NCBI GenBank assembly: GCA_016181845.1
Contig: JACOYO010000002.1
Coordinates: 20,780 to 84,779 of the forward strand
Direction: 5' to 3'
DNA from: Parcubacteria group bacterium
Lineage (GTDB): Bacteria; Patescibacteriota; Minisyncoccia; Phycocordibacterales; 21-14-all-47-15
DNA length: 64,000 nt
Each line of letters begins with the position of its first letter. The first letter of the stretch is position 1. The notes below the pieces were generated by a model. The model made no database searches. It saw only the letters and a list, made by a program, of their open reading frames with translations, and was not told the DNA's origin. Both the position numbers and the translations under genes were made by a program. Of the stretch, positions 2,159 to 60,875 are shown in pieces.

Positions 2159-2162
2159 AGTG

Positions 2163-30765: not shown

Positions 30766-30858
30766 GTAGAGAAGCGTTTGCCCTCGTCGTTCAACTCCGA
30801 CACTTCGGTCGGAGTCCCGACTCCGAGGGTGTCGGGATTATTACAATGAAATAAAATT

Positions 30859-31167: not shown

Positions 31168-31202
31168 CGCATGTTAGAAACCGATTTGTGGTTTCTTAAA
31201 AC

Positions 31203-35799: not shown

Positions 35800-35876
35800 A
35801 CGTCCGACCTCTGAATTGGAAACATATCGGCATTGGCCGTAAATAAAGTAATTACCACATCAGAGGTCGGACGTCT
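35798..35876 (+). repeat. family-A element copy 4, between convergent ruvX and the LysM-M23 gene
   Basis: Direct comparison. Confidence 0.85.
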
Positions 35877-35919
35877 CACGCTATTGATATATGGGATGGT
35901 TTTTGATTTTGGAAAAGTT

Positions 35920-44004: not shown

Positions 44005-44868
44005 TTGTATGATAGTCGTATGAAGCCGAAGAAATCATTAGGACAACATTTTCTGAACTCGCCGGAGACGGTGCGAAAAATTATTGAAATCGCGGAACTT
44101 TCGCTGGACGATATCGTGCTTGAAGTGGGACCCGGCAGAGGAGGGCTGACCAAAGCGCTCTTGGAGCGCGCCGGAAAAGTTATTGCTGTGGAAAAAGACC
44201 GTGAACTAAAACCATTTCTTGAAAATCTGTTTCAGGAAGAAATAAAAAAAGGAACGCTCGAGCTTGTGTTCGGCGATATATTGCAATTTACAAAGGAGGA
44301 ACCTTTGTACAAAGGTTCCTCCTTTGTAAATTGTGGGAAAAACTATAAGATTGTGGCGAATATCCCGTATTATATTACCGGCGAATTGCTCCGGCTTTTT
44401 TTGTCCGGAGATTTTCAGCCGAAAAGTATGACCCTTCTTGTGCAAAAAGAAGTCGCGGAGCGTATTGTGGCGCGTGATGGCAAAGAAAGCATTCTCTCAA
44501 TAAGTGTTAAAGCGTATGGTGTGCCGACATATATTCAAACGGTATCGGCGCGCGATTTTTTGCCGCCCCCCAAAGTAGATTCGGCGATTTTGCACATTGA
44601 TGCGATTTCTAAAGATTTTTTTACTTTGCCGACTTGGAAACCCGACGTCCAAGTTGAAGAGGAATTTTTCAAATTGGTAAAAACCGGCTTTGCTCATAAG
44701 CGAAAATTGCTTATCGGTAACTTAAAAAACCCTTATAAATACAAAGGTTCCTCCTTTGTAGTACAAGCGTTAGAAAAATGCTCAATTCCTCAAAACGCTC
44801 GCGCGGAAAATGTCTCGCTTGATGGGTGGAAATGTCTTTTACGGAGAATTATGACTCAGGAATTATGA
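44005..44868 (+). CDS. rsmA: 16S rRNA (adenine1518/1519-N6)-dimethyltransferase RsmA/KsgA, with two in-frame palindromic insertions
   Basis: SLGQHFL, VLEVGPGRGGLT SAM motif, NIPYYIT; YKGSSFV encoded twice by a palindrome. Confidence 0.85.
   Translation: MYDSRMKPKKSLGQHFLNSPETVRKIIEIAELSLDDIVLEVGPGRGGLTKALLERAGKVIAVEKDRELKPFLENLFQEEIKKGTLELVFGDILQFTKEEPLYKGSSFVNCGKNYKIVANIPYYITGELLRLFLSGDFQPKSMTLLVQKEVAERIVARDGKESILSISVKAYGVPTYIQTVSARDFLPPPKVDSAILHIDAISKDFFTLPTWKPDVQVEEEFFKLVKTGFAHKRKLLIGNLKNPYKYKGSSFVVQALEKCSIPQNARAENVSLDGWKCLLRRIMTQEL
44289..44328. repeat. family-D 40-bp palindrome TACAAAGGAGGAACCTTTGTACAAAGGTTCCTCCTTTGTA, in-frame inside ksgA; further copies at 44750-44770 (in-frame) and 44942-44970
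   Basis: Read directly. Confidence 0.8.
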
Positions 44869-45068
44869 ATATAAAAAAGCGCAAAAACCAAAAGAAATTC
44901 ACTTGGAAGCGAAGCTTCCAAGTAAGAGTAAGATAGAAGAGAAATTTTTTGATTCTACAAAGGGTAGCCCTTTGTAGAATTCAATAGATATACACACATT
45001 TGGTACTTTGCCTTTTTGTAACGTGATATACTGTAAGGGTAGAATTAGGAGGATTCTAACTTTTTACT

Positions 45069-46055
45069 TTGAACTATTTTCCCAGCAAAAAGATTTTAAT
45101 GTTATTAGCGGTCCTGGCGCTTGGCGGCGGATTGTGGGGGTTTATGTCGTCTCGCACCGAATCAAACAAACTGCCCGGAACACTCGTATTTACCAATAGC
45201 GGCGCCGCGCAAGCACCACTCCGTGGCATCACGCAAAAAGACAGCGATACCGACGGTCTTTTTGATTGGGAGGAGATGCTTTGGAAGACAGACCCCAACA
45301 ATCCCGATACTGACGGTGACGGTACAAACGACGGCGACGAAATTAAACTAAAACGAAATCCTTTGAAGCCAGGGCCAGACGATGCTTTGCCGGACGATTT
45401 TTTACATCAACAAACTCAAACAAACGAGCCGGACGAGAAATTGACGCAAACCCAGCTTCTTACGCGCGATTTTATCAGCACCTATCTCAAACTCAAACAA
45501 ACGGACCAATTTACGCCTGAAAATCAGGAGAAGCTCGTTAGTAGTTTTATGGAAGAAGCGCTCTCGCGCGCTCAAACAACAGAAAACCCCGCGCGTTCTT
45601 TAGAGGAACTCACGATTGAAGATGAGGCCGGTATCATTCCGATAAGCCAATATGCGCAAGCATTGGAATCTGCTTTAGGAAAAAATTTCTCTTACTCATT
45701 TTTTGGGCAGGAGCTTATACTGCTCAAAAATATTTTGGAGAAAAAAGATTCGCGCACGATAGCCGTATTTGGTGAAGCGGAAAAAGCATACCGAAATCTT
45801 GCGGACGAACTGCTCAAGACGCGCGTGCCGCGTGAGATAGCAGTGTCTCATATCGCGCTTATCAACAGCGCGCTCGTGATTGCAAAAAGTTTTTCCGACA
45901 TAATGCTCCTCCCGACAGACCCGCTCCAGGCACTTACCGGCGTGAAAAGATATGATGAAGAATTGGTCAATTTTGGAAAATATTTGAGCGATATTTCATC
46001 TTACATTCTGCGGGTGACAAACGAAGCAGAAAATAAACTAAAAACTAAAAACTAA
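45069..46055 (+). CDS. secreted protein with thrombospondin type-3-like Ca-binding repeats
   Basis: Signal peptide; DSDTDGLFDWEE...DPNNPDTDGDGTNDGDE. Confidence 0.6.
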   Translation: MNYFPSKKILMLLAVLALGGGLWGFMSSRTESNKLPGTLVFTNSGAAQAPLRGITQKDSDTDGLFDWEEMLWKTDPNNPDTDGDGTNDGDEIKLKRNPLKPGPDDALPDDFLHQQTQTNEPDEKLTQTQLLTRDFISTYLKLKQTDQFTPENQEKLVSSFMEEALSRAQTTENPARSLEELTIEDEAGIIPISQYAQALESALGKNFSYSFFGQELILLKNILEKKDSRTIAVFGEAEKAYRNLADELLKTRVPREIAVSHIALINSALVIAKSFSDIMLLPTDPLQALTGVKRYDEELVNFGKYLSDISSYILRVTNEAENKLKTKN

Positions 46056-46124
46056 AAATGAAAAACAACAATGCAAAACTAAAAACTTTAAATTTTAAGT
46101 TGTTGTTTTTCATTTTTCGTTTTT
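46049..46124. repeat. family-B AT-rich inverted-repeat hairpin (AAAAATGAAAAACAACAA ... TTGTTGTTTTTCATTTTT), cargo-less copy
   Basis: Arms related to those flanking 50760..51065. Confidence 0.6.
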
Positions 46125-46137
46125 AAGTTTACATTTT

Positions 46138-48063
46138 ATGTTTTCTTACCTTCAGAAAAAAATCATTGCGGCAATGCTTGTGGTGGCGATTATATCTCCA
46201 GCGGTGCTTTTAATACAGCCGAAAAAAGCGGAAGCGGCGTGCGGATTTGGTGGCGGAGGGGGTGGAGGCACGCCCGAAACAAATCCAAATATACAGGGAC
46301 CAGTAGACACAAGCGGCATGATTCAGGCTATGCGTCAAATCAAGCCCCGACTTGCTATTCAACGACTTATCGAAGACACACCCCTTGCGGTGAGCGTGTC
46401 AACTAATATTTTTAAATCAGGAGGAGCGTCAACTATTTCCATTCCTCAAACCAGTTTTGACGCAAACGCGCTTGATGGCGGCGCTACATTGGCTCTTGTG
46501 GTAAGCGAACCTGTTTTGCAAGCTATTAATATTGCGCAGAAAGCAATAGAGTGCATTACCTCCATCGCGAGTTCAATAACATCATTTGCGACCGATTCGC
46601 TGGCAATAAAAGAAACCGTGCTTGACGGCATCGCGTACGCAATCATCAATCAAATCATTGCCGATATGTTAAATGATATTCAGCGTTGGGCGATTACCGG
46701 CTTCAAAGGAAACCCTGTATTTTTAACCAACCCTGAACGGTACTTCACCAATTTAGCGGACCAAGTGCTTGGCGTATTTTTAAATAAGCTTGCCGGCGTC
46801 AACTTGTGCAATATCAGATGGAACGCGCTGATTGAAATTTCTCTTAGCATTGATTTGGGATACCAACAGCGTGCGCAATGCACTTTTTCTGAAATAGGCG
46901 CGAATTTTGACCGGTTTATAAATGATTTTTCCCAAGGCGGATGGGGCGCATGGATTAAACTCACCACCGAAACGCAAAATAATCCCTATGGCGCTTATAT
47001 TCTCGCGACAGAAGAACTTGCAAAGCAAACCGGCACGGTCCCGGGCGGACTTCTCGGCAAAAAACTGCTTGAGCTTCAATGGGGCAAGGGCATCATATCT
47101 CTGACGAAGTGTACATACGGAGAAATTTCTCAAAATGATGTGGATTCTGGGTATATCAATGAAAATCTTCCGGCGCTTGATAAATCAACTATTGGAATGT
47201 GTAAAGACGCGCGGGGTAATCCTGACCCCAACGCTACCTCTAACACCACGCCCGGAAATATCATTGAAGATTCCATAAACAAAACACTTGGAGCAACGAC
47301 CGATCGTATTGTGGCGGCTGATGAAATCAACGAGACCATGGCGGCTCTTTTATACGGACTTTTGGTCAAGACATTTTCTTCAAATGAAGGTTTTGCCGGC
47401 GCCGACTGGAGCGGCATATCGTCGCAGATTGGCAGTGGGGCGAGCAATAAAGCGTTTGCCGACGTAAAAAGCGAGATTTTCGCGCGCGTGGATTCGTTTA
47501 CCATAAGCGAGACAGAATTCAAGAAACAAAAAGAACGAGCGCTCGGCGTTTTGAAAGAAAGCGAAAAAGCGTTGAATGAAGTCGCCGCGTGCTACATAGA
47601 CCAAATTACACTCTACAAACAATACCTTGACCCCGCGAATACCCGCCTGCTTTCTATCGGCTCCGGCAATCCATTTTTGCAGTTTGTGCAGGCGGAAGCC
47701 GAACAAAAAATACAGCAGAGCCGCGATACGCTTGCGCAAAAAATAACTCCGCGCGTGGCGCCGCTCCAAAATAGCGTCACGCAATCAAACGTATTTCTTT
47801 ATGAAATAGAGCAGACGCGCGCGACGATTGTTTCAGCAGATACATTTAACAAACTGGATGAAAAGACCAAGATATTTTTTGAGACGCGCGACCGATGGGA
47901 CGACCCGCTTGAAGCGGCGGCGGCGGAAAATGAAGCGGACTCCATCAAAACCGAGATTGAACCGATTACCGCGCAGGCAAAAGCAGATTTGCCGCCATGT
48001 CAAACAACTCGCCAGCAGATGCGCGACTTTTTCAAGATAAACGACATACAGCCCGCGGCGTGA
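46138..48063 (+). CDS. large secreted hypothetical protein (signal/TM, poly-Gly CGFGGGGGGG), first gene of the T4SS-like block
   Basis: ORF track; composition. Confidence 0.5.
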   Translation: MFSYLQKKIIAAMLVVAIISPAVLLIQPKKAEAACGFGGGGGGGTPETNPNIQGPVDTSGMIQAMRQIKPRLAIQRLIEDTPLAVSVSTNIFKSGGASTISIPQTSFDANALDGGATLALVVSEPVLQAINIAQKAIECITSIASSITSFATDSLAIKETVLDGIAYAIINQIIADMLNDIQRWAITGFKGNPVFLTNPERYFTNLADQVLGVFLNKLAGVNLCNIRWNALIEISLSIDLGYQQRAQCTFSEIGANFDRFINDFSQGGWGAWIKLTTETQNNPYGAYILATEELAKQTGTVPGGLLGKKLLELQWGKGIISLTKCTYGEISQNDVDSGYINENLPALDKSTIGMCKDARGNPDPNATSNTTPGNIIEDSINKTLGATTDRIVAADEINETMAALLYGLLVKTFSSNEGFAGADWSGISSQIGSGASNKAFADVKSEIFARVDSFTISETEFKKQKERALGVLKESEKALNEVAACYIDQITLYKQYLDPANTRLLSIGSGNPFLQFVQAEAEQKIQQSRDTLAQKITPRVAPLQNSVTQSNVFLYEIEQTRATIVSADTFNKLDEKTKIFFETRDRWDDPLEAAAAENEADSIKTEIEPITAQAKADLPPCQTTRQQMRDFFKINDIQPAA

Positions 48064-48065
48064 TT

Positions 48066-48144
48066 AGACGTCCGACCTCTGAATTGGTAAAAAATCGGCA
48101 TTAGCCGCAAATAAAGTAATTACCACATCAGAGGTCGAACGTCT
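48066..48144 (+). repeat. family-A element copy 5, immediately upstream of the VirB6-like gene
   Basis: Direct comparison. Confidence 0.85.
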
Positions 48145-48163
48145 TAAAAAACAATATATTACC

Positions 48164-50038
48164 ATGAAGAAATTTATTATCACCATAATGCTCATCAGTG
48201 TCCTCGGAGGGATATTTTCTCCGTCGGTTGTTCGGGCGGGTCCTCTAGACGCTGTTGTCGAAGCCACTACAGGGTCTTTTATAAATGACGCGATGATAAA
48301 TCTTGCTGATAAATGGCTTTCGCTCATGGCGCGCGGGCTATATCTTTCCGGAGCATTGCTCGATGCGTCCATTGATTTTTCTCTCAACAAACTCAAAGAA
48401 TATACCAAGGGTTCGGTAAGCAAAGCATGGGCGGCGGGACGCGATATTGCCAATATCTTTTTTATATTCATTTTGCTCTACATTGCCATCGCGACTATTT
48501 TGCAGATTGAAGGATTCGGTACCAAATCGCTTTTAGTCAGAGTGGTGCTTGTCGCGCTTTTGGTAAATTTCAGCTTGGTGATTACCCAGGTGGTGATAGA
48601 TGCCTCAAATGTGCTTGCCGTTGCGCTGTTTGAAAATATTAAAGGCGGCAATAGCGATGTGTCAATTGCCTTTATGAGGGGATTGCGACTGGAATCATTG
48701 TACGATATAGGAAAAAAAGGAACAGATGTTGCCTTTTCCTTTACGCCCGCGCAAATGTTGACAGTCATGGTATTCGGTTCGCTCTTCATTTTAGTTGCCT
48801 CGTTTGTCTTTCTTGCCGCCGCCGTTTTGTTTGTTACGCGGAGCGTCGTTCTCATTTTCTTGATGATCCTTTCTCCGCTTGCTTTTTTGGCATGGGTACT
48901 GCCCGGCACATCAGGATATGCTCAAAAATGGTGGGAGACGCTTCTTCACCAGTCGTTTTTCGCGCCGGCGTATCTTTTTGTGATTACCGCTGTGCTCTTG
49001 GTACTGCAAGGCAATGCACAAGGAGGGGTTGAAGCGGTGACCAAAGGCAAAGTTTTGGACACTAGCGGAAATACTTTTGTGGGAGCATTGATTAGTTCAA
49101 ATAAGGATAGTTTTGGCATTATTCTTAACTTTGCCATTCTGATTGGGATGATACTCGCGGCGCTTATCGTCGCAAAAAGCATGGGGGCGTACGGCGCCGA
49201 AACAGTGATAAAATGGGGGCACAACGCGCGGAAATGGGGGCAGGGAGCCGTCGGCAGAAATACGGTCGGGCGTTTGGCAAGCATAATGGCAGAATCCGGC
49301 GCAATGAAAGGTATTGCGGCAAAAGCTCCTCGCCTCGGCAGTTTGATGTACGGCACGCTTGATGCCGCCAGCGGTTATGGTTTTGGCGGCGCGGCCGGAG
49401 GTTATCGCGGCGCCGTTGAGAGAGAAGCAAAACGCCGTGTTGCCATTGGCAAGAGAATTGCCGGCGGAGAAGGAGGAAAAGAGCGACTGCAAGCATACAA
49501 GGAGAATCTTGAGAAAAAACCACTTATATCTCGCGTGGCGTCGGGGGCAATCGCCGGAACGATGTTTGCTCCTGGCGTTGGAACGGTTGTTGGCGGCGCT
49601 GTTGCAGGGCTCGGCGCTATGATGCCGCGGCGAGAAGGAGAAAAAATGGCGGTCAAGAAATTAAATGAATATCAGGCGATGGAAGACAAATTAAGTCGTA
49701 GAATGGAGCAGGATATGACCACCCTGCAAGCAAGCGCCGGTCTTTCGCCCGGTGATTTACAGGGACTTGATAAAGATAAGCAAATTGAAAAACTTGGTTC
49801 AGCTGTTGAGGCAACGATAGACAAACTAAATAAAGAATTGCAAAATCTTTCTTTACAGCTACAAACAAGCGGTCCAACTGAAACGTTAAATAAACAGATA
49901 CAGGCGACCAAGCAAGGCATACGAGATATACGAAATACCCAGAGAGATATTGAAAATTCACGAGATAAGCTTAATACGGCACAGAACTGGAGAGAAAAGA
50001 AAGAAGAGAAAAAAGAAGCAACAAGTAAAGAAAAATAA
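48164..50038 (+). CDS. polytopic membrane protein, VirB6/TrbL-like, with long Gly-rich/coiled-coil C-terminal tail
   Basis: Signal peptide then five or more TM helices; topology typical of VirB6/TrbL; genomic context with VirB4 and PrgI-like. Confidence 0.5.
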   Translation: MKKFIITIMLISVLGGIFSPSVVRAGPLDAVVEATTGSFINDAMINLADKWLSLMARGLYLSGALLDASIDFSLNKLKEYTKGSVSKAWAAGRDIANIFFIFILLYIAIATILQIEGFGTKSLLVRVVLVALLVNFSLVITQVVIDASNVLAVALFENIKGGNSDVSIAFMRGLRLESLYDIGKKGTDVAFSFTPAQMLTVMVFGSLFILVASFVFLAAAVLFVTRSVVLIFLMILSPLAFLAWVLPGTSGYAQKWWETLLHQSFFAPAYLFVITAVLLVLQGNAQGGVEAVTKGKVLDTSGNTFVGALISSNKDSFGIILNFAILIGMILAALIVAKSMGAYGAETVIKWGHNARKWGQGAVGRNTVGRLASIMAESGAMKGIAAKAPRLGSLMYGTLDAASGYGFGGAAGGYRGAVEREAKRRVAIGKRIAGGEGGKERLQAYKENLEKKPLISRVASGAIAGTMFAPGVGTVVGGAVAGLGAMMPRREGEKMAVKKLNEYQAMEDKLSRRMEQDMTTLQASAGLSPGDLQGLDKDKQIEKLGSAVEATIDKLNKELQNLSLQLQTSGPTETLNKQIQATKQGIRDIRNTQRDIENSRDKLNTAQNWREKKEEKKEATSKEK

Positions 50039-50040
50039 TT

Positions 50041-50607
50041 ATGCCACAGTATACAAAAGAACAATTTGAAGAAAAATTTAACGCTCTTCCGAAAGATATA
50101 CAGGAGGCCATTGTTGCGTCCGATACCGAAAATACGATTAGAGGTATCGGGCAAAAATATCACCTGCATATTGACCAAATCGGAGAATTGATGGAAGCAA
50201 CCGATTTTGTGATGCTCGGCGTGTCGCCACCGAAAGAATATATCCGCGATTTATACCAACGATTTGAATCGGAAGATAAAGAAAAAGTGCGGCAAATCGC
50301 GCATGACGTAAATGAGCAGGTGTTTCAAAAAATCAAAGAGTCTCTCAAGCAGATTCATAATGTAGAAAATGAAACACAAAACATGAAACATGAAACACCA
50401 ATGACTGCGGAACCGCCAAGGACAACAGAATCAAAAGATGAAATAGTTGAAAAAATAGAATTCCCAGAAAAAGAAGAAAAGGATATCGTAAAAGAAAAAC
50501 TTCAGGCGATGAACGTTATGCCGAAAGCGGAATCGGAGTATGAAATGAAACCGGATGGAGGCAACAAGAAAAAATGGAGCGCCGACCCGTATCGCGAACC
50601 GATTTGA
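50041..50607 (+). CDS. acidic hypothetical protein
   Basis: ORF track. Confidence 0.45.
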   Translation: MPQYTKEQFEEKFNALPKDIQEAIVASDTENTIRGIGQKYHLHIDQIGELMEATDFVMLGVSPPKEYIRDLYQRFESEDKEKVRQIAHDVNEQVFQKIKESLKQIHNVENETQNMKHETPMTAEPPRTTESKDEIVEKIEFPEKEEKDIVKEKLQAMNVMPKAESEYEMKPDGGNKKKWSADPYREPI

Positions 50608-50658
50608 ATAGGCAAATCCTATTCAAATCGGTTCGCGAGAATCAAGAATCAAGTTAGT

Positions 50659-51105
50659 AAAAATGAAAAAGGAAAAACGAAAAATGCAAAACAACAACTT
50701 AAAAATAAAAACAGACCTAAAAAAAACGAGCCTATATATTTGCCATTGATATTATAAAGATGATTGATTTTATTGATAAAAAAGATTTTACGATACAAGT
50801 TATTTCTAAACAATTAATTAGAAGCGCCACCAGTATTGGATCAAATATCATTGAAGCTCAAGCGGGTAGTACAAAAAAAGACTTTACTAATTTTTTTAGT
50901 TACGCTTTGAAATCTGCGAATGAAAGTAAGTTCTGGCTCGGACTCTTAAGGGATTCTGGTAAAGGAAATAAAGAAAAGTGCAATAAATTACTGCAGGAAA
51001 CGATAGAATTATCAAATATGTTAGGATCAAGTATACTTACTTTGAAAGGGAAAAAGAAATTTTAAATTTTATGTTGTTGTTTTGCATTTTTCATTTTTAA
51101 TTTTA
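50659..51105. mobile_element. family-B inverted repeats (left 50659-50712, right 51063-51105) bracketing a four-helix-bundle gene: candidate small cargo element
   Basis: GAAAAATGCAAAACAACAACTT versus reverse complement of ATGTTGTTGTTTTGCATTTTTC (20/22). Confidence 0.4.
50760..51065 (+). CDS. four-helix-bundle protein (TIGR02436-like; the family encoded in 23S rRNA intervening sequences)
   Basis: QLIRSATSIGSNIIEAQAGSTKKDFTNFFSYALKSANESKFWLGLL matches the family core. Confidence 0.65.
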   Translation: MIDFIDKKDFTIQVISKQLIRSATSIGSNIIEAQAGSTKKDFTNFFSYALKSANESKFWLGLLRDSGKGNKEKCNKLLQETIELSNMLGSSILTLKGKKKF

Positions 51106-51117
51106 CGCTTCTATTTT

Positions 51118-51570
51118 ATGCGTTACGAAGTCCCACAATTTATTGAGGTTGAAGACAAAGTGTTTGGTCCGCTGACCATCAAACAGTTTTTGTATTTGGT
51201 GGGCGGAGCCGGAGTCGCGTATCTCATTTGGGTTTCTCTGCCGACTTTTTTTGCCGTTCTCTTTATCGTTCCAGTTGCGGCATTGGCTTTATCGCTTGCT
51301 TTTTATCAGGTGAACAATCGTCCGTTTGTGCAGATTATTGAAAACAGCGTGCAATATTTTTTCAGCAACAAACTCTACCTCTGGAAAAAAGAACCGAAAA
51401 AAAACGCGCGCGAAACGGCGGCGGACATATCAAAAAATGAACCCTCATATATCCCGAAACTGTCAGAAAGCAAACTAAAAGATATCGCCTGGGGGCTTGA
51501 CGTACATGAAAGTTTGTATGCCGGCACGGACACGGAAAAGAGAAAAAAAGAAAAAGTGTTTAGAACATGA
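51118..51570 (+). CDS. PrgI-like conjugation/T4SS membrane protein
   Basis: MRYEVPQFIEVEDKVFGPLTIKQFLYL N-terminus plus two TM helices. Confidence 0.5.
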   Translation: MRYEVPQFIEVEDKVFGPLTIKQFLYLVGGAGVAYLIWVSLPTFFAVLFIVPVAALALSLAFYQVNNRPFVQIIENSVQYFFSNKLYLWKKEPKKNARETAADISKNEPSYIPKLSESKLKDIAWGLDVHESLYAGTDTEKRKKEKVFRT

Positions 51571-51585
51571 AACCTAAAATAATTT

Positions 51586-51672
51586 TGAATTTCCAATTTT
51601 GAATTTTGAATAAATTTTGAATGTCTTAATTTAAAATTAGAATTTGATTCAAAATTCAAAATTGGAAATTCA
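51586..51672. repeat. AT-rich ~27-bp-arm inverted repeat (TTGAATTTCCAATTTTGAATTTTGAA ... TTCAAAATTCAAAATTGGAAATTCAA)
   Basis: Read directly, between PrgI-like and VirB4 N-terminal genes. Confidence 0.7.
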
Positions 51673-51681
51673 AAACTCAAC

Positions 51682-52326
51682 ATGACTAAAGAAACCACCC
51701 AACAATTTGTTCCAATCAAAGAAGTGCGCGACGGCGTCGTGGTGCTTCGCGACGGCTCGCTCCGCACCGTGCTTATGGCATCGTCGCTCAACTTCGCGCT
51801 GAAATCGGCGGATGAACAGGAGGCGATTACTTCTCAATTTCAAAATTTTCTAAACTCGCTTGAATTTTCCGTTGAATTCTACATCCAATCTCGGCGGCTT
51901 GACATCAGGCCGTATATCGCGCTTCTGGAAGAGCGGATGAAAGAACAGACGAATGATTTGGTAAAAATCCAGACTCACGAATATATCGGTTTCATAAAAA
52001 ATTTTACCGAATCAACCGACATAATGAGCAAAAATTTTTTTATCATCATTCCGTATGCGGCGTCTATTTTCCAGGACAAAAAGAAGATGGGAGGATTTTT
52101 CGGAAAGAAAGCTCCGGCGGAAGTTGAAAAGAAAAATGAAGCGGAACAATTTGAAGAAAGCCGCACCCAGCTTGAACAGCGCTCGGCGATTGTCTCACAA
52201 GGACTTTCCCGCGCAGGGGTCAGGGTGGCGATGCTCGGGACCGAAGAAATTATAGAATTGTTTTACAAAATATTTAACCCGGGGGAGCTTGAGAAACCGA
52301 TTGTTTCAGATGACGGTATGCAATAA
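51682..52326 (+). CDS. VirB4/TrsE-family N-terminal domain protein
   Basis: QFVPIKEVRDGVVVLRDGSLRTVLMASSLNFALKSADEQEAI resembles conjugative ATPase N-termini; same frame as the next ORF, separated by TAATAA. Confidence 0.55.
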   Translation: MTKETTQQFVPIKEVRDGVVVLRDGSLRTVLMASSLNFALKSADEQEAITSQFQNFLNSLEFSVEFYIQSRRLDIRPYIALLEERMKEQTNDLVKIQTHEYIGFIKNFTESTDIMSKNFFIIIPYAASIFQDKKKMGGFFGKKAPAEVEKKNEAEQFEESRTQLEQRSAIVSQGLSRAGVRVAMLGTEEIIELFYKIFNPGELEKPIVSDDGMQ

Positions 52327-52335
52327 TAAAATATC

Positions 52336-54150
52336 ATGGCATTATTTGATTTTCTAAAAAAGAAAAAAACAGAAGAAGCGATTACGCCGATTTTGCCGCA
52401 GGAAATTTATGAAGCGGCAACGCTTGAATTGAAAGATATTCTGGCGCCGTCGGCGCTCAAGATTTCTCCGCGCGAAATAAATCTCGGAGAAAAAATAGCC
52501 CGCACTTTTTTTGTCATTTCATATCCGCGGTTTCTTACGGACAATTGGTTTTCTCCGATTATCAATCTTGACAAAGTATTTGATGTCGCTATTTACGTGC
52601 ACGCGATTGAAACGCAAAAAGTGCTCCGTCAATTCCAAAAAAAGGTCGCGGAAGTGGAAAGTCAGATAAATATCCGCGAGGAAAAAGGGCTTGTCCGCGA
52701 CCCGGAACTTGACGCGGCGTACCGAAATCTTGAAGCGCTCCGAGATAAACTCCAGCAGGCGGAGGAAAAATTGTTTGATGTCGGACTCTACATCACTATT
52801 TACGGCTCTACGAGCGAAGAGTTGGATAAAGTGGAGTCAACCATCAAATCCATTCTTGAATCAAAATTGGTTTTTTTGAAACCGGCGCTCTTCCAGCAGG
52901 AGGCGGGGTTCATGAGCGTCTTGCCGCTTGGCGACGACCGGCTCCTTGTGCATTCAAAACTCAATTCTTCACCTCTAGCGAGTATGTTTCCATTCGTGTC
53001 GTTTGACCTGACATCTGATAAAGGAATTTTGTACGGCATCAACCGTCACAATTCTTCCCTTATTTTGTTTGACCGCTTCTCGCTTGAAAACTATAACTCG
53101 GTTATTTTTGCGAAAGCCGGTTCCGGCAAGTCGTACGCGACGAAGCTTGAAATTTTGCGGTCGCTTATGTTTGATACCGATGTTATCGTGATTGACCCCG
53201 AACGTGAATATGAATATCTGGCGGAAGCGATGGGCGGACGGTATTTTAATATCTCGCTTTCATCAGAGCATCACATCAATCCGTTTGACCTCCCCGTTCC
53301 ACGTGAAGACGAAGCGCCTTCCGATGTGCTCCGTTCACATATCATCAATTTAGTCGGACTCTTCCGCCTCATGCTGGGCGGACTTACCCCCGAGGAAGAT
53401 TCAATCGTTGACCGCGCCATTACCGAAACATACGCGCTAAAAGATATTACGCCAGCGACGAATTTCGGCAATGTCATGCCTCCGCTTTTGTCTGATTTTG
53501 AATTGGTCCTTGCCGGTATGGAAGGCGCCGAATCGCTCGTGTCGCGCCTGTCAAAATATACCAAAGGTACGTGGGCCGGTTTTATCAATCGTCCGACCAA
53601 TGTTGATATCAATAAAAAATTCGTCGTGTTTTCCGTGCGCGATATGGAAGACGACCTGAAGCCGGTCGCAATGTATATTATCACGCACTATATCTGGAAT
53701 GCTGTCCGCAAAACGCTCCGCAAGCGGCTCTTGGTGATTGATGAAGCGTGGTGGATGATGAAAGCCGAAGACACCGCGTCGTTTTTGTTCGGCATCGCGA
53801 AACGTTCGCGCAAATACTATCTCGGGCTCGCGACCATTACCCAGGACGTCGGCGATTTTTTGAAATCTCCGTATGGTTTGCCCATCATTACCAACTCGTC
53901 TCTTCAGCTTTTGCTCAAGCAGTCGCCAGCGATTATTGACGAGGTGCAAAAAACTTTTAACCTGACCGAGGAAGAAAAATTTTTGCTTCTTGAATCCGAT
54001 GTCGGCGAGGGAATCTTTTTTGCCGGATTGAAACACGTGGCGATTAAAATCATCGCTTCATACACCGAAGACCAGATTATTACTTCCGACCCGGCGCAAC
54101 TCTTGGCCATCAAACGCGCCAAAGAAGAGCTGAAACAAGCGGAAACATAA
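52336..54150 (+). CDS. VirB4/TraC/CagE-family type IV secretion ATPase
   Basis: Walker A AKAGSGKSYATK, Walker B LLVIDEAWWMM, VIVIDPEREY. Confidence 0.8.
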   Translation: MALFDFLKKKKTEEAITPILPQEIYEAATLELKDILAPSALKISPREINLGEKIARTFFVISYPRFLTDNWFSPIINLDKVFDVAIYVHAIETQKVLRQFQKKVAEVESQINIREEKGLVRDPELDAAYRNLEALRDKLQQAEEKLFDVGLYITIYGSTSEELDKVESTIKSILESKLVFLKPALFQQEAGFMSVLPLGDDRLLVHSKLNSSPLASMFPFVSFDLTSDKGILYGINRHNSSLILFDRFSLENYNSVIFAKAGSGKSYATKLEILRSLMFDTDVIVIDPEREYEYLAEAMGGRYFNISLSSEHHINPFDLPVPREDEAPSDVLRSHIINLVGLFRLMLGGLTPEEDSIVDRAITETYALKDITPATNFGNVMPPLLSDFELVLAGMEGAESLVSRLSKYTKGTWAGFINRPTNVDINKKFVVFSVRDMEDDLKPVAMYIITHYIWNAVRKTLRKRLLVIDEAWWMMKAEDTASFLFGIAKRSRKYYLGLATITQDVGDFLKSPYGLPIITNSSLQLLLKQSPAIIDEVQKTFNLTEEEKFLLLESDVGEGIFFAGLKHVAIKIIASYTEDQIITSDPAQLLAIKRAKEELKQAET

Positions 54151-54154
54151 ATCT

Positions 54155-54634
54155 ATGGCAACAAACACACCACCCACTGTCGGCAATGAAATTGTTCAAA
54201 GGGCTCCTTCTCCCGCGCGTTTTCTTCGCGCTCGCGCTCGGGCGCGGCAAAAAGCTGTGTCCGATGAAAGCGATGAAGAAAAAAAAGCGCAAGCCGCCGG
54301 ACAATCACAAAAATTAACCGGCGCCGGATTCACTATTATGATACTTCTTGCGCTTGTCAAAGATTTTTTTGACATTATCGCCAGCGCGAGCGTTGTGTTG
54401 GCATTTCTCTCAACTATTGCCGGAGTGTCGGTTGCGTTTATTATTTTTCTATATCTTTTTTTCAACAACGTTTCATTTACCGCGCGGAAACTTACCGTTT
54501 TGCTCGCGATGTTTCTTATAGAAAGCGTCCCATTCTTAGCGCTATTGCCGACGACGACAATCAGTTTGCTTATCGTGCGCTATTTGGAACACAACGCCGC
54601 CGTCAAGCGAATCGGGGAACGTTTTGCCGCATAA
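54155..54634 (+). CDS. three-TM membrane protein, T4SS-associated by context
   Basis: Hydrophobicity pattern; position after VirB4. Confidence 0.45.
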   Translation: MATNTPPTVGNEIVQRAPSPARFLRARARARQKAVSDESDEEKKAQAAGQSQKLTGAGFTIMILLALVKDFFDIIASASVVLAFLSTIAGVSVAFIIFLYLFFNNVSFTARKLTVLLAMFLIESVPFLALLPTTTISLLIVRYLEHNAAVKRIGERFAA

Positions 54635-54660
54635 AACGGCGTTATGGTTGGCGTATTGTA

Positions 54661-54805
54661 CCTTGAATTACGAAACTCTTTTTTTGACACCGCTCGGCCG
54701 CTTCCAGCGGCGGCCTAGCTTGTCCTCGGGCTCGGATTTTGCTTCGCAAAAACCAAGCTCCTCGCCCTGCGGCCGTATCAAAAAAAGAGTTTCGTAATTC
54801 ATAAT
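54661..54805. repeat. family-C palindrome arms (GAATTACGAAACTCT / AGAGTTTCGTAATTC) enclosing a 110-bp GC-rich insert (54676-54785)
   Basis: Arms match 14876/27445; insert GC visibly far above surrounding sequence. Confidence 0.7.
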
Positions 54806-54848
54806 ATGGTAATTCAAAATATGATATACTATTGAATAATACGATGAC

Positions 54849-55886
54849 ATGCCTCACAAATTAAATACAATCTTTTTTCTGTTGTGCTCCGCTGTTTTTT
54901 TGGCGATGCCCGCGCTTGGCTTCGCCGCTCTTTTGCCGAACGGAGAGCCGCTCTTAATTATTGCGAATCCGGAAAATCCAAAACCATTTGACACGGTGAC
55001 CGCACGCGTTGAAAGTTTTCGGTTTGATGTCTCCAGAAGCGTGATTACATGGTATGTAAACGGAAAAAAGACGGCTTCAGGAATTGGGAAAACACAAATA
55101 TCATTTTCAGCTGGAGGCGGAGGCAAAGAAACAACCGTTGAAGTCGTGGCTCAATCGGAAACCTCCGGCGTGTTCAACCAGACGCTTGTGTTTCGCCCCG
55201 CGGACGTCGCTCTTTTATGGGAGGCAGATACCTATACTCCTCCTTTTTATCAAGGGAAAGCGCTCGCGTCGTCCGCGGCAAGAATCAAAATTACCGCTTT
55301 TCCGGAATTTACAGATAGCTCGGGCCGCGCCGTTTCTCCGCGCAATCTTGTGTACCAATGGCAGGTTGACGGCTCAAATCTGCCGAATCAATCGGGCTAC
55401 GGAGCGCGAACAATCACCGTGACCGGCGCTCGGATTTATAGAGATACCGAAATATCCGTTGAAGTGTCTTCCGTTGACAGAAGTATCGTTGCTCAAAAAA
55501 TATTGATTATCCCCTCAACCGACCCGAAACTCGTACTGTATGAAAATCATCCGCTGGAAGGAGTGAAATACTCGCAAGCGCTTTCTTCTTCATTTTCGCT
55601 TTCGGAACCCGAGGTGAGCATACGCGCGGAGCCGTACTTTTTTTCAGATATTGGTACTCTTGATTACGGATGGTTTCTCAACAACGAGCCGGTCACGGTG
55701 GACCGGAATGAATGGAATAATATAACTCTGCGCCAAGAAAGCGGCTCTGCCGGCGTGTCGCGTGTCAGCCTTGATGTGCGCGGAATAAGCGGCATACGCG
55801 GGCGTATATTGCAAAACGCGGCGGCGGCGCTCCTTATTTATTTCGGTGGACAAGGAGCGGGCGCTGGAGGATTTTTTGGGCAATAG
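54849..55886 (+). CDS. secreted hypothetical protein
   Basis: Signal peptide; ORF track. Confidence 0.5.
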   Translation: MPHKLNTIFFLLCSAVFLAMPALGFAALLPNGEPLLIIANPENPKPFDTVTARVESFRFDVSRSVITWYVNGKKTASGIGKTQISFSAGGGGKETTVEVVAQSETSGVFNQTLVFRPADVALLWEADTYTPPFYQGKALASSAARIKITAFPEFTDSSGRAVSPRNLVYQWQVDGSNLPNQSGYGARTITVTGARIYRDTEISVEVSSVDRSIVAQKILIIPSTDPKLVLYENHPLEGVKYSQALSSSFSLSEPEVSIRAEPYFFSDIGTLDYGWFLNNEPVTVDRNEWNNITLRQESGSAGVSRVSLDVRGISGIRGRILQNAAAALLIYFGGQGAGAGGFFGQ

Positions 55887-55908
55887 CAGTACATAAAAAA
55901 ATATAAAA

Positions 55909-56766
55909 ATGAAAGCATTAAAATCAATAGCATTTATGGCGCTGATATTTCTCTTCTTTTTTACGCTTGCAATTCCGTTTATTAGTGTTGCCGACTCCGT
56001 AGGTTATATCCTTCAGCCGTTGCCTGGTTTTGACGAAAAAGCGGGTGGCTTGGGCGGATATTTTACAAGTATGTACCAATGGATAATCGGTATTGCAGGA
56101 GTCTTGGCGGTGCTTATGATTGTTGTTGCCGGCATAGAATATATGACCCCGACACCGTCTTCAAAAGAATCGGCAAAAAATCGCGCGTGGGCGGCTATTT
56201 CCGGATTACTTTTGGCGCTCGTATCATATCTTATTTTGAATACGATAAACCCCGATTTGGTGAAACAAAGTATTACGTTACCAAATGTGTCTATCCAAAA
56301 AGCGCCTGAAAATACCAATGAGCTTTTTTCAGCTCGGCAACTATTTCAAGCGCGGCTCAATCAAGAACAAACCTTCAAAGCGGCGATAAAAGATTATGCC
56401 GATTACTCCGCTTCGTTACAGGAACAACAAGATGAATTGTTAACACAGTGGCAGGAAGCGCCGGCAAATTCTGAATTAAGAAAAGTTATAGAACAAAACA
56501 TACGCAATCTTGACGCGCAGATAATTCAAAACAATAATGCACAGAACACGCTTGAGCAATTAAAAGCGGTCGCTACTCAAAATCGGATTGCTGAAGCAAA
56601 ACTTCTTACCGAAAAAGTGATTAGCGCTTCAAACAAAGAAGAAGATAAACAAATTGAAAAAAAGTGCAATGACGAAATCAATTCAAATTGGCTTACGAAA
56701 GGTAGTATTATTTATTACAATTTTTGTTTAGTCAAAAATGCTCACGGTTTCTTTAAGGTTTACTAA
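55909..56766 (+). CDS. VirB2/TrbC-like pilin candidate with C-terminal coiled-coil extension
   Basis: Signal peptide followed by two hydrophobic segments (pilin-like topology); context. Confidence 0.4.
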   Translation: MKALKSIAFMALIFLFFFTLAIPFISVADSVGYILQPLPGFDEKAGGLGGYFTSMYQWIIGIAGVLAVLMIVVAGIEYMTPTPSSKESAKNRAWAAISGLLLALVSYLILNTINPDLVKQSITLPNVSIQKAPENTNELFSARQLFQARLNQEQTFKAAIKDYADYSASLQEQQDELLTQWQEAPANSELRKVIEQNIRNLDAQIIQNNNAQNTLEQLKAVATQNRIAEAKLLTEKVISASNKEEDKQIEKKCNDEINSNWLTKGSIIYYNFCLVKNAHGFFKVY

Positions 56767-56772
56767 CCATAT

Positions 56773-58002
56773 ATGTCCAAAAAAACACTCACCATTCTCA
56801 TTGTTGTCGCGACCGTTGTAATCATCGGGCTTTTTGTTGCGGCATTTTTATTGTCGCGCGGGAAGAGCGTCGTGCCTGGTGAAGGCGGCGAAGGATTCTT
56901 TGGCGATTTTTTCCCGACCGAAGGCGGCGGAGGGCAGGCGCCCGGGGCAGGCACTGGTATTGGCACCACAAGCAAGCAAGGCATATCTGGAAAAGAAGCA
57001 TCAGCGCTACTTCCAGCTCTGCGGCAAATTACCACCGCGCCTATTGCCGGAGCGGTAGCATTTTCGCGTAATGGTAAAACATACATTCGGTATATTGAAA
57101 AAAGGACCGGCAATGTATATGAGGCAGATACCGCGTCGTATGGAAACAATCGCATCACCAATACGACCATACCGGGTGTTGCAGAAGCGTTTTGGAACCA
57201 TGACGGTTCGCAAATGGTGATTCGCTATATTGACAAAGACACGGGCGCGATAAAAAATTTTGGAGCAAAAATAAATGAATTAAAAAACACGCTTGAAGGC
57301 GCTTTTCTTCCCGACAGCATACGCGAAATTGCGGTATCTCCCGACGCAGATAAAATATTCTATACCTTGCCTTTCCAGACTGATACGGCTGGAGCTTCAG
57401 CAAACTTTGACGGCACAAAAACGCTCAATATATTTAACTCTCCGTTTTCCGAATGGCGCGTTTCATGGCCTCTGTCAAAAACAATCGCGCTTGCTACAAA
57501 ATCGTCTTTTGCCGCATCAGGGTACCTCTATTTTTTGAACACGCAGACCGAAGCGCTTAATAGCGTCTTGAGCGGCGTCCGCGGGCTCCTCGCGCTCCCA
57601 AGCCCAGATGGGAAATATGTCTTATACAGTGAAAGCACGGAAGACGGGTTTATACTCAATTTGTTTACCCGCGGGAATAAAGCAGTAACCGAGTTGCCAA
57701 CGAGCACCTTGCCGGAAAAGTGCGTATGGGCAAAAGATAGCATTACACTCTACTGCGCGGCGCCGCTTATCATCCCTATGGGAAAATATCCCGATGCTTG
57801 GTATCAGGGAATAGTATCTTTTTCTGATGATATTTGGAAAATAAATACTGAAACCGGTTTTATTGATTTGGTAATGCAGTTGGAAGATGAAGCCCGCGTG
57901 CCGATTGACGCACTGAATCCCGCTTTGAGTCCCGATGAAGATTATCTTATATTCATCAACAAAAAAGACTCCTCGTTGTGGAGCCTTAGATTAGCTTTTT
58001 AG
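56773..58002 (+). CDS. membrane-anchored TolB-like beta-propeller (PD40 repeats) protein
   Basis: N-terminal TM helix; SPDGKYVLYSE, SPDEDYLIFIN repeats. Confidence 0.55.
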   Translation: MSKKTLTILIVVATVVIIGLFVAAFLLSRGKSVVPGEGGEGFFGDFFPTEGGGGQAPGAGTGIGTTSKQGISGKEASALLPALRQITTAPIAGAVAFSRNGKTYIRYIEKRTGNVYEADTASYGNNRITNTTIPGVAEAFWNHDGSQMVIRYIDKDTGAIKNFGAKINELKNTLEGAFLPDSIREIAVSPDADKIFYTLPFQTDTAGASANFDGTKTLNIFNSPFSEWRVSWPLSKTIALATKSSFAASGYLYFLNTQTEALNSVLSGVRGLLALPSPDGKYVLYSESTEDGFILNLFTRGNKAVTELPTSTLPEKCVWAKDSITLYCAAPLIIPMGKYPDAWYQGIVSFSDDIWKINTETGFIDLVMQLEDEARVPIDALNPALSPDEDYLIFINKKDSSLWSLRLAF

Positions 58003-58084: not shown

Positions 58085-58558
58085 CTAAAAAGCTACGTAC
58101 TTAATCACCACCCTTCTTCCCATTCCAAAGCCGGTTGATTCCGTTGCTATGTCGGGAGTTTCCGCGAGGACAGAATGCACCACCATGCGGTCATACGGAT
58201 TCATCGGGTCCATTTCTATAGCGCTTTTGAAAAAACGCGCGCGCTCGGCAAGCATGAGCGCTTTATTTTTGAGCTCAACGTCCTGCTTTGCTTTGTAGCC
58301 GTTGACGTCAATGGTATATATTTTTCTTTCTTTGTGTTTCTCAAAACCAAATTTTTTCTCCATCGCTTTTTTGAAAATATGGTTTAATGCGAGAAGCGTT
58401 TCGCCGTCTTTACCTATTAACAAATGCGGCTCATCGGTATACAGCATATATTTGGCGTACGCAGTGGCGGGGTCTGATACAATCTCTATTTTTTCAACCA
58501 AAATACCGCTTGCGTTGAGAAGGTCTTTTATAAATATCTGTGCACTTTGCTCCTCCAT
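58085..58558 (-). CDS. jag: Jag/KhpB-like RNA-binding protein (KH + R3H)
   Basis: KH GxxG-like LIGKDGETL; R3H-like C-terminus; downstream of yidC. Confidence 0.7.
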   Translation of the reverse strand: MEEQSAQIFIKDLLNASGILVEKIEIVSDPATAYAKYMLYTDEPHLLIGKDGETLLALNHIFKKAMEKKFGFEKHKERKIYTIDVNGYKAKQDVELKNKALMLAERARFFKSAIEMDPMNPYDRMVVHSVLAETPDIATESTGFGMGRRVVIKYVAF

Positions 58559-58654
58559 ATATAAGTATTATCTTCTTCATATAACACACCGCATCAAAAA
58601 TTACAAACTGCCGTCTGTTGAAGTTTGACTTCAGCAGACGACTTTCCGTTGAAG

Positions 58655-59389
58655 TCAAACTTCAACGGAAAGCAATTTCTTTGCTTTGCGGCGCACAAAC
58701 AATTCATGTCCGATGCTGAAACAATTGCTGGTGACCCAATAGAGAGCGACTGCCGATGATATTGTGTAGGCGATAAAGGCGACAAGCACCGGCATAACAT
58801 AACGCATCTGGACGCTCATGCTCTTTGCGAGCTCATCTTTGAATGAGCGCTCGGCGCTTGACGATTCGGTTGGTATTGGAGGCATAGATAATCGTATCTG
58901 CAAGAATTGGGTTATGCCGGCAAGCAAAGCAAGCAAAATGCTTTTCCCGTGCATATCAATAAACCCCAAGAACAGTGTATTGACGTGACCCGGAAAAGAA
59001 ATGAAAGAATACAGTAAACTGGAATCTGGCTTTATACCTTTTAAGAATACCCAATAAAGGGCGAAAATAATCGGGAGCTGGACGACAAGCAAGAAACAAC
59101 CGGAAAAAGGGTTCACGCCGTGTCTTTGGTAAAGTTCCATGGTTTTTTTTGCCTGCTCTTGTTTATTATCTTTTGTTTCCTCTCGTATTTTTTTGATGTG
59201 CGGGTCAAGGGTACGTATTTTTGCCTGCGTGGATACCGACTTATGCGAAAGAGGGAAGAGAATAATTTTTACCAAGAGGGTCAAAAAAATAACCGCAAAT
59301 CCGAGACTTGCCCCAGGCGACACGTCTACCAAAAATACCAATGCGTTATATAGCGGTTGATAGAAAATGGTATTGAATAATTCGGTCAT
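58655..59389 (-). CDS. yidC: membrane protein insertase YidC/Oxa1 family (short form)
   Basis: 244 aa; five TM helices; YidC core pattern; yidC-jag synteny. Confidence 0.8.
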   Translation of the reverse strand: MTELFNTIFYQPLYNALVFLVDVSPGASLGFAVIFLTLLVKIILFPLSHKSVSTQAKIRTLDPHIKKIREETKDNKQEQAKKTMELYQRHGVNPFSGCFLLVVQLPIIFALYWVFLKGIKPDSSLLYSFISFPGHVNTLFLGFIDMHGKSILLALLAGITQFLQIRLSMPPIPTESSSAERSFKDELAKSMSVQMRYVMPVLVAFIAYTISSAVALYWVTSNCFSIGHELFVRRKAKKLLSVEV

Positions 59390-60540: not shown

Positions 60541-60546
60541 AAACTT

Positions 60547-60617
60547 GCGGGATTAGTTTAATGGTAGAACATCAGTTTTCCAAACTGATGGCAGGAGTTC
60601 GATTCTCCTATCCCGCA
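60547..60617 (+). tRNA. tRNA-Gly (anticodon TCC)
   Basis: Acceptor GCGGGAT/ATCCCGC, D-arm GTTT-AATGGTA-GAAC, anticodon stem TCAGT/ACTGA loop TTTCCAA, T-arm AGGAG-TTCGATT-CTCCT, discriminator A. Confidence 0.8.
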
Positions 60618-60875
60618 TAAAAATAAGGAGCACAAAGCGAAGCTTTGGGCGACTATATTTTTTATAGCGGGTATGGAGAATCGAAAGGCGGAGGCCGCGA
60701 AGCCGAATCCGAAGCGAAGCATAGGATTCGTGGCCGAGCCAGGGTCGTGAGCGCATATTTATAAAGAACGTAGCGATTATATAAATAGCGACTCCTGACC
60801 GATTCTCCTATCCCGCATAAAAATAAGGAGCACGAAGCGAAGCTTTGGACGACTATATTTTTTATAGCGGGTATG
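60601..60875 (+). repeat. 200-bp periodic unit: 75-bp direct repeat (tRNA-Gly 3' end + 58-nt trailer including the alr ATG) at 60601-60675 and 60801-60875, enclosing the shared 76-bp GC-rich module (60678-60753)
   Basis: Direct comparison; 2 mismatches between repeats; module 70/76 identical to the tRNA-Arg locus. Confidence 0.85.

Follow-up and report, generated by a model that had tools for sequence, protein, structure and literature searches.

The 64,000-nucleotide stretch analysed here (the window, throughout), from a Parcubacteria group bacterium (assembly GCA_016181845.1, contig JACOYO010000002.1), carries at positions 46138-58002 a cluster of genes that, together with the thrombospondin-repeat gene flanking it, is very probably a chromosomal, vertically inherited type IV secretion system (T4SS) of the Patescibacteria type, in its Paceibacteria (Parcubacteria) form. 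This kind of system is already known, having been described between 2023 and 2025, so that the locus is better seen as a typical case than as something new. As assigned from sequence, its T4SS core is made up of VirB4, a TrsD-like protein that represents a split-off VirB4 N-domain, a VirB3/PrgI-like protein, a VirB6-like channel protein and a single VirB2-like pilin; this core is a monoderm inner-membrane translocon, derived from the MPF-FATA class, with a pilin acquired on top. Around it stand six lineage-specific partners, namely a TSP3 Ca-binding protein, a 641-residue protein, a protein ending in the motif DPYRE, a small protein with three transmembrane (TM) segments, a protein of three immunoglobulin-like (Ig) domains and a TolB-like propeller, whose membership of the module is by conserved synteny only. 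These six proteins, which have no assigned role, are retained, and hold their positions, as consistently as the T4SS core itself, and it is this conservation, the triple-Ig nature of the 345-residue protein and the DPYRE motif of the 188-residue protein that are new in the present analysis.

An earlier note on this DNA, made from the letters alone, had listed most of these genes as a contiguous same-strand set, and all of the open reading frames (ORFs) it named lie where it placed them, on the + strand. Two further ORFs inside the span had escaped it, those of the 188-residue protein (50041-50607) and of a 23S-rRNA intervening-sequence (IVS) protein (50760-51065). All cluster ORFs are on the + strand and intact under translation table 11, and an alternative genetic code is unneeded. 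The topologies it had proposed (secreted proteins, a polytopic protein with a long tail, a three-TM protein) are borne out by a hydropathy scan, which places an N-terminal signal or anchor on the products of 46138-48063, 54849-55886, 55909-56766 and 56773-58002, and its guess at a host-dependent, ultra-small bacterium suits the source, a Parcubacteria metagenome-assembled genome (MAG). Profile searches against Pfam (at gathering scores) and NCBIfam (at its cutoffs), with family profiles also run against the PDB, uphold the T4SS-related nature of the cluster through direct matches of VirB4, PrgI and the pilin and, for VirB6, through homologs that pass the TrbL model. The same searches overturn the view that VirB4 was the only confident component, as both PrgI and the pilin exceed their gathering scores and the TrsD-like protein is matched as well. 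Nor is the system effectively uncharacterised, as had been thought: its gene set and its site close to ksgA and dnaA are described in PMC12102498, and it is essential in Southlakia epibionticum (PMC10633639).

The closest known systems are those surveyed in 3,035 Patescibacteria genomes by Quiñonero-Coronel et al. (2025, PMC12102498); VirB4 was present in 2,417 of these, and most of the VirB4 proteins form a single clade within the monoderm MPF-FATA class. TrsD (the commonest T4SS component in these bacteria), PrgI/VirB3, VirB6 and VirB2-like pilins are widespread near virB4. Few homologues of VirB8 or VirB1 occur, hardly any relaxases are present, and homologues of the type IV coupling protein (T4CP) rarely occur near virB4; in Paceibacteria and Microgenomatia, virB4 is often found near dnaA, dnaN, rnpA, ksgA and rpmH (PMC12102498). 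The cluster in the window shares with these systems a VirB4 accompanied by a separate TrsD, PrgI/VirB3, VirB6 and a VirB2-like pilin, the lack of a relaxase or T4CP adjoining virB4, a chromosomal position near ksgA, yidC and dnaA, and vertical conservation within its class. It differs in having a single pilin gene with a long C-terminal extension, where Saccharimonadia and Microgenomatia have arrays of 2-11 pilins, and in having no peptidase or lysozyme (a VirB1 substitute) directly downstream of virB4. It also carries partners of its own, the TSP3, 641-residue, DPYRE, 3-TM, triple-Ig and propeller proteins. To our knowledge, these six have been left unannotated in published synteny figures.

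The motor of the system is a VirB4-family ATPase of the monoderm CD1110/MPF-FATA type (52336-54150, + strand). Its best model is NF045971 of the CD1110 family (3.7e-111, 372.7 bits against an NCBIfam cutoff of 325), Pfam recognises P-loop_TraG in it (9.1e-25), and the closest solved structure to its ATPase domain is that of the VirB4 from the Gram-positive Thermoanaerobacter (4AG5, 1.9e-42), with TrwK reached at 1.8e-8. Both nucleotide-binding motifs are intact, Walker A at residues 258-265 and Walker B at residues 465-471. Judging by its best model and the identity of its relatives, this VirB4 probably belongs to the MPF-FATA-related Patescibacteria clade.

Directly upstream, the gene at 51682-52326 (+) encodes a 214-residue TrsD-like protein, and here the earlier suggestion that the VirB4 N-terminal domain forms an ORF of its own proved correct. 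The protein matches the first ~120-240 residues of VirB4 models (VirB4_plasma 4.1e-10, CD1110 2.4e-6, TIGR00929 4.3e-5) as well as the TrsD/TraD model NF041427 of NCBIfam (8.7e-5), and the copy in one relative bears the TraC-like domain PF26593. The trsD and virB4 ORFs share a frame, the ATG of virB4 being preceded by TAA TAA and then two codons, and the two are separate in 77 of 77 related loci, at gaps ranging from −4 to ~500 nucleotides and in all three relative frames. The double stop and the recurrence of the split in varied frames rule out a frameshift, a sequencing error or a pseudogene as its cause; since the genes are separate in every one of these relatives and in all frames, the split is ancestral and the two are genuine genes. 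The separate VirB4 N-domain gene of the window corresponds to the TrsD of PMC12102498.

The VirB6/TrbL-like polytopic membrane protein (48164-50038, +; 624 residues) is recognised through its topology, its position and its TrbL-matching homologs. A signal and ~6 TM segments are followed by a ~290-residue hydrophilic, coiled-coil-like C-terminal tail. TrbL (PF04610) is matched by 6 of 37 orthologs, and two close homologs exceed its gathering score of 25.9 over almost the full model (P0148 with 27.2 bits, P0160 with 26.5 bits); such TrbL-passing homologs are 42-46% identical to the protein, P0148 being 46% identical across the whole 400-residue query. Among the 120 matches listed, many carry a precomputed PF04610 or PF19590, and several homologs have been named T4SS protein or VirB6 by NCBI or JGI. 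Taking transitive homology, topology and position together, we accept the protein as a probable member of the VirB6 family.

The remaining two core components are matched directly. The PrgI/VirB3-like small membrane protein (51112-51570, +) matches PF12666 at 1.7e-11 (44.9 bits against a gathering score of 27) and is folded, according to its hydropathy, as a 2-TM hairpin; its ORF opens at a TTG at 51082, and translation likely starts at the ATG at 51112. The putative VirB2-like pilin (55909-56766, +; 285 residues) matches PF18895 (T4SS_pilin) over residues 55-112 at 1.1e-7 (32.2 bits against a gathering score of 26.6) and, weakly, TrbC (0.0086). It consists of a signal peptide, two hydrophobic helices and a C-terminal extension of ~170 residues. 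Orthologs conserve only the N-terminal ~37%, that is, the pilin domain, and the extension varies in length. The assignment as a pilin draws on Pfam and topology, and no second pilin gene or pilin array is present in the 64-kb window.

The conservation of this arrangement was assessed in relatives drawn from a scan of GTDB species genomes, which returned at least 516 relatives of VirB4; the best 80 were used as loci. These 80 VirB4 proteins are 76-82% identical to that of the window and all come from Patescibacteria MAGs; the named lineages among them are mostly Paceibacteria/Parcubacteria (Campbell-, Nomura-, Taylor-, Zambryski-, Kaiser- and Adlerbacteria), and many of the 80 are third-party annotation (TPA) assemblies labelled "uncultured Candidatus Saccharibacteria". 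Where the flanks are complete, the recurring order is uvrD, ksgA, TSP3, 641-residue protein, VirB6-like, 188-residue protein, PrgI, TrsD, VirB4, (small TM protein), 345-residue protein, pilin and propeller, and then jag and yidC; by tblastn, departures from it amount to presence/absence noise only, so that the gene order, for which the earlier note had proposed a check in relatives, is conserved across dozens of species. When family hidden Markov models (HMMs) were run on the 46 complete loci, which are defined by virB4, 9 of the 11 module genes were present in 43-46 of them. PrgI, TrsD, the 345-residue protein and the propeller were found in all 46, the VirB6-like protein, the 188-residue protein and the pilin in 45 (the pilin in single copy in 43), the 641-residue protein in 44, the TSP3 protein in 43 and the small 3-TM protein in 29.

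Median identities across the loci differ widely between the parts of the module. VirB4 stands at 78%, a figure somewhat inflated by the choice of loci as best VirB4 matches, followed by TrsD (61%), UvrD (54%), PrgI (48%), KsgA (47%) and YidC (45%), with the extracellular proteins at 26-38%. With the same caveat of VirB4-picked loci, these values suggest that the motor is under strong purifying selection and may be more constrained than the neighbouring housekeeping genes; the surface parts of the module evolve fast. The cluster is bounded in the window by ksgA (44005-44868) and by jag and yidC (58085-59389), while rnpA, dnaA and dnaN lie at 2163-5574 and the cumulative GC skew climbs across the window from a minimum near dnaA. 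From the presence of dnaA and dnaN and the rising skew it follows that the cluster is origin-proximal and co-oriented with replication. The stretch 1925-5574 holds rnpA, yidD, dnaA and dnaN, yet yidC and jag, usually members of the rnpA operon, lie 54 kb away beside the T4SS. In a distant relative (locus L081) the T4SS block, jag and yidC, rnpA, dnaA and dnaN are contiguous, and relative to that arrangement there appears to have been an insertion of ~54 kb, or a rearrangement, between rnpA and yidC.

Among the partners, the first gene of the module (45069-46055, +) encodes an N-terminally anchored protein with bacterial thrombospondin-type-3 (Ca-binding) repeats. The earlier recognition of a thrombospondin-repeat protein ahead of the cluster is confirmed by a match to TSP3_bac (PF18884) at 5.3e-6, above the gathering score; a TM segment spans residues 9-27, and across loci the family HMM places the gene ~6.9 kb upstream of virB4. 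It is followed by the 641-residue secreted protein (46138-48063, +), a member of a large uncharacterised family that counts 5,982 clusters at 50% identity with E<=1e-3 and 3,823 with E<=1e-30. It combines a signal peptide with a linker rich in Gly, a conserved helical core that contains Cys, and a helical bundle at the C-terminus; the protein has no Pfam or NCBIfam match, and its family profile finds nothing in the PDB. The structure prediction that the earlier note had called for gave little here, the AlphaFold2 (AF2) model having a mean predicted local distance difference test (pLDDT) score of 59.7, with values below 50 at residues 19-434 and residues 435-634 alone confident, and a Foldseek search with it returned nothing meaningful, only coiled-coil noise. 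In a Pfam search of 37 orthologs and 10 long relatives, some carry add-on domains of F5/8-type-C (lectin-like), Ig-like, PKD or InlB-repeat type, which would fit an exposed, host-facing role.

Structure prediction was more rewarding for the 345-residue secreted or anchored protein (54849-55886, +), for which a confident model (pLDDT 89.7, predicted template modelling score, pTM, 0.79) consists of three tandem beta-sandwich domains of Ig/FnIII-like type; on this prediction, it is a surface Ig-repeat protein. Its candidacy as the missing VirB8 was rejected, the model being Ig-like and not NTF2-like. The 641-residue and 345-residue proteins are identical to the NCBI entries HYT28_01015 and HYT28_01055, respectively, both from a Parcubacteria group bacterium MAG. 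The 188-residue protein (50041-50607, +) is acidic and soluble, with no TM segment in the hydropathy scan and no significant Pfam or PDB match, and ends in DPYRE(P). In its alignment D182, Y184 and E186 are invariant; in 59 of 80 loci, one and only one ORF has DPYRE at its end, and the + strand examples listed sit between the genes for the VirB6-like protein and PrgI, on the upstream side of virB4. The DPYRE tail might serve as a peptide for docking or as a signal for secretion. The small 3-TM membrane protein (54155-54634, +; 159 residues) is an accessory, not encoded in roughly one locus in three; neither Pfam nor the PDB offers a match for it, 43 of 45 positional counterparts after virB4 fall into one BLASTP component, and a relationship to the pilin or to PrgI was rejected by hhalign. 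The last gene (56773-58002, +) encodes a 409-residue N-terminally anchored, putative beta-propeller protein with a TM segment at residues 8-26. Its likeness to TolB, proposed in the earlier note, is weak: PD40 is matched at 0.023, below its gathering score, and the family profile reaches TolB in the PDB at 6.4e-4 over ~130 residues.

Several components of other T4SSs are missing. Pfam searches of ORFs of at least 150 residues across the 64-kb window found no VirD4/T4CP, relaxase, integrase, VirB11, VirB8, VirB9 or VirB10, in agreement with the absences (relaxase, VirD4, VirB11, VirB9/B10) noticed before. The earlier note had raised the possibility of a reduced apparatus, a description we would not keep: the lack of VirB9 and VirB10 is expected of a monoderm system, and doing without VirB7/9/10 is the norm for T4SSs of the MPF-FATA type. 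A cell-wall hydrolase domain is absent from all cluster proteins in Pfam and NCBIfam; a LysM-M23 peptidase is encoded at 35920-36915, on the opposite strand and 10 kb from the cluster. The larger ORFs elsewhere in the window are housekeeping or envelope genes only (dnaA, dnaN, rnpA, a class A penicillin-binding protein, RuvA, PolA, a Mur ligase and TsaE), and a PilB-type T2SSE ATPase is encoded at 13037-14767.

Comparison with characterised machines places the cluster among the monoderm systems with a feature of its own. With the MPF-FATA conjugative T4SSs (Prg/Pcf of pCF10, Trs of pGO1/pSK41, CD1110 of C. difficile CTn2 and Tra of pIP501) it shares a CD1110-family VirB4, a PrgI-type VirB3, a TrsD-type protein and a VirB6-like protein, and neither has the VirB7/9/10 outer-membrane core. 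Four components of the conjugative systems were not found here, namely the relaxase, the coupling protein of VirD4 type, the VirB1-like hydrolase and the VirB8-like (NTF2) proteins, whereas those systems lack the VirB2 pilin that the cluster possesses. A recent review describes the Patescibacteria systems as exceptional among Gram-positive-type T4SSs in having VirB2-like pilins (2025, PMC12857230). A VirB4-type ATPase, a VirB6-like protein, a VirB2-like pilin and the lack of a relaxase or coupling protein are also common to the archaeal Ced/Ted systems and the Helicobacter pylori ComB system, both of which move DNA inward; for the Patescibacteria system import would, by this analogy, be a hypothesis. 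No specific orthology was found, the window VirB4 matching CedB (6.2e-8, 31.7 bits against a cutoff of 700) and CedD only weakly in NCBIfam, and ComB has a diderm VirB7-10 core that the cluster lacks.

We tentatively propose the following mechanism. VirB4 and TrsD, docked on VirB3 and VirB6, would drive a VirB2-like pilus or conduit to assemble across the monoderm cell wall, and the exposed Ig-like, TSP3, propeller and 641-residue proteins would stabilise this structure in the envelope, bind the host cell, or both. The machine would act at the interface between epibiont and host and not in conjugation. We infer these steps from established T4SS biology and the experiments cited here. Transposon sequencing has shown that the T4SS genes, pilins included, are essential for epibiotic growth of the Saccharibacterium Southlakia epibionticum ML1 (SEML1_0006-0019; Wang et al. 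2023, PMC10633639), in which comEC is dispensable (PMC10633639; PMC12857230), and a 2026 preprint describes the uptake of host RNA, together with tubular structures that may be T4SS pili, in a cultured Microgenomatia strain. As to what is transported, we lean slightly towards import of host macromolecules (nucleic acids) over export, direction and substrate being hypothetical and import itself possible rather than probable. A more detailed version, which we regard as speculative and on balance unlikely, makes the six partners integral to a Paceibacteria-specific, host-penetrating VirB2-type pilus machine that would work in reverse and import host RNA or DNA as a nucleotide supply, the partners replacing VirB8, VirB1 and adhesin functions and the DPYRE tail docking to VirB4/TrsD.

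A number of observations weigh against this interpretation of the cluster as a working host-directed T4SS. The window copy of the VirB6-like protein has no Pfam or NCBIfam match of its own, and its family profile finds no VirB6/TrwI match in the PDB. The pilin profile reaches VirB2 structures in the PDB at E=0.22, which is not significant, and the 170-residue C-terminal extension is atypical and may prevent polymerisation in the manner of a canonical VirB2. The cluster yielded no counterpart of VirB8 or VirB1, the folds of the TSP3, 641-residue, propeller and 3-TM proteins being unresolved. The negative for VirD4 and relaxase covers the 64-kb window, and many distant VirD4 homologues are reported in Patescibacteria (PMC12102498). 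Experimental support comes from Saccharimonadia and Microgenomatia, not from Paceibacteria, and the sequence gives no sign of transport direction or substrate.

It is in this last respect that the strongest competitor arises, in which the same machine exports effector proteins (or DNA), delivering them into the host cell or onto its surface so as to manipulate it or make it permeable, and nutrients are acquired by other routes. Most characterised non-conjugative T4SSs do export proteins, effector delivery has been named as speculation (PMC11665869; PMC10633639), exporters that dispense with a T4CP are known in Ptl and Brucella VirB (PMC12102498), and the 188-residue protein with its invariant DPYRE could be a substrate or an adaptor. 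Against this, no effector candidate, T4CP or secretion-signal family was identified in the window, and the data do not separate export from import; we rate export as somewhat unlikely. An apparatus for attachment alone, in which VirB4, VirB6 and VirB3 merely build a VirB2-like pilus that, with the Ig-like, TSP3 and propeller proteins, holds on to the host and transports nothing, would account for the wealth of adhesin-type surface proteins in the cluster (three Ig domains, TSP3 repeats, and F5/8-C, Ig and PKD domains in orthologs of the 641-residue protein) and for the lack of a T4CP in the window. However, type IV pili already serve attachment in Patescibacteria, and the PilB-type ATPase lies in this very window; the extreme conservation of VirB4 and the essentiality in Saccharibacteria suggest more than adhesion, without excluding it, so that we regard a purely adhesive role as improbable.

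Most remote is a conjugative or integrative mobile element, or its decaying remnant, assembled horizontally, which we consider very improbable indeed. The VirB4 family is typified by Firmicutes conjugative elements (CD1110), repeats stand between several of the genes, and an IVS-protein gene with flanking inverted repeats is inserted in the cluster. The repeats, which the earlier note had read as a sign of horizontal assembly, are real, but they are intergenic hairpins of 80-120 nucleotides (REP/MITE-like) in two families dispersed over the whole 64 kb, usually sited between convergent or consecutive genes, and not the borders of an element. One family, with the core AGACGTCCGACCTCTG…CAGAGGTCGGACGTCT, occurs at 1806-1915, 15536-15665, 17962-18102, 35783-35899 and 48051-48167, and the other, with the core TGAATTACGAAACTC…, at 14871-14933, 27441-27476 and 54646-54801. 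The guanine-plus-cytosine (GC) content of the cluster equals that of its flanks (0.447 against 0.440 for the window), the sole anomaly being the AT-rich IVS-protein element (0.273). The ORFs scanned in the window include no relaxase, T4CP or integrase, all those of the cluster are intact, dozens of species keep them in the same order and with the same housekeeping genes on either side, and VirB4 exceeds these neighbours in conservation. Because the repeats are genome-wide, the composition matches the flanks and the synteny is conserved, horizontal assembly is rejected, and the same three observations point to long vertical inheritance of the T4SS rather than recent assembly.

A few other elements of the window deserve mention. 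The 23S-rRNA-IVS-protein gene (50760-51065, +; PF05635, 1.4e-20) lies within the loop formed by a long inverted repeat rich in AT (50658-50711 and 51060-51113, 81% complementary), the whole element (50640-51115) being inserted between the 188-residue and PrgI genes, and a related "empty" hairpin lies at 46024-46147, directly upstream of the gene at 46138-48063. Of the 80 related loci, 6 hold IVS-protein genes, three of them at the same intergenic position, and the element looks like a small mobile or hairpin-borne cassette. In and near ksgA (ORF 44005-44868), a 21-nucleotide palindrome, TACAAAGGTTCCTCCTTTGTA, is present in four copies, at 44289-44328, 44740-44760 and 44956-44976, and three of these copies fall within the ksgA ORF. 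Within ksgA it encodes YKGSSFV twice, and in an alignment of orthologs its first site is an in-frame insertion (GSSFVNCG) lacking in relatives, which resembles, by analogy, the insertions of Rickettsia-palindromic-element type into coding sequence. Two further elements adjoin tRNA genes, at 30858-31175 after tRNA-Arg and at 60546-60880 after tRNA-Gly; in both, the last ~19 nucleotides of the tRNA and a ~44-nucleotide hairpin are repeated exactly 200 nucleotides downstream, and the two share a 97-nucleotide GC-rich core that lies in between (30972-31068 and 60659-60755, 88% identical); Rfam finds nothing at these sites. They look like a miniature element integrated at tRNA 3' ends with an att-like duplication, or else an unrecognised small RNA. 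An Rfam scan of the window returned four tRNAs only, and a promoter and terminator scan gave counts near chance and was uninformative. Two large proteins complete the list: an acidic, low-complexity protein of 867 residues (37234-39837, +) with central TM segments, no Pfam match and no Walker A/P-loop, and a secreted protein of 690 residues (15702-17774, +) with internal repeats of ~104-109 residues and sub-threshold FnIII/PhoD-N-like matches, whose gene shows nucleotide repeats 312 and 327 nucleotides apart (at 16745, 17057 and 17384).

The Patescibacteria T4SS belongs to a small group of machines on which epibiotic life has been shown to depend in these bacteria, which are very abundant and for the most part uncultured. 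The locus described here is a textbook instance that leaves the picture of this system unchanged and would not surprise a specialist, and by itself it makes the question of substrate and direction no more testable. What it adds is modest: a well-defined and strongly syntenic inventory of parts for the Paceibacteria form, in which the six conserved proteins that have no assigned role, among them a confidently predicted surface component of three Ig-like domains and a protein with an invariant C-terminal motif, offer themselves as candidates for structural or genetic work once a Paceibacteria co-culture can be handled.

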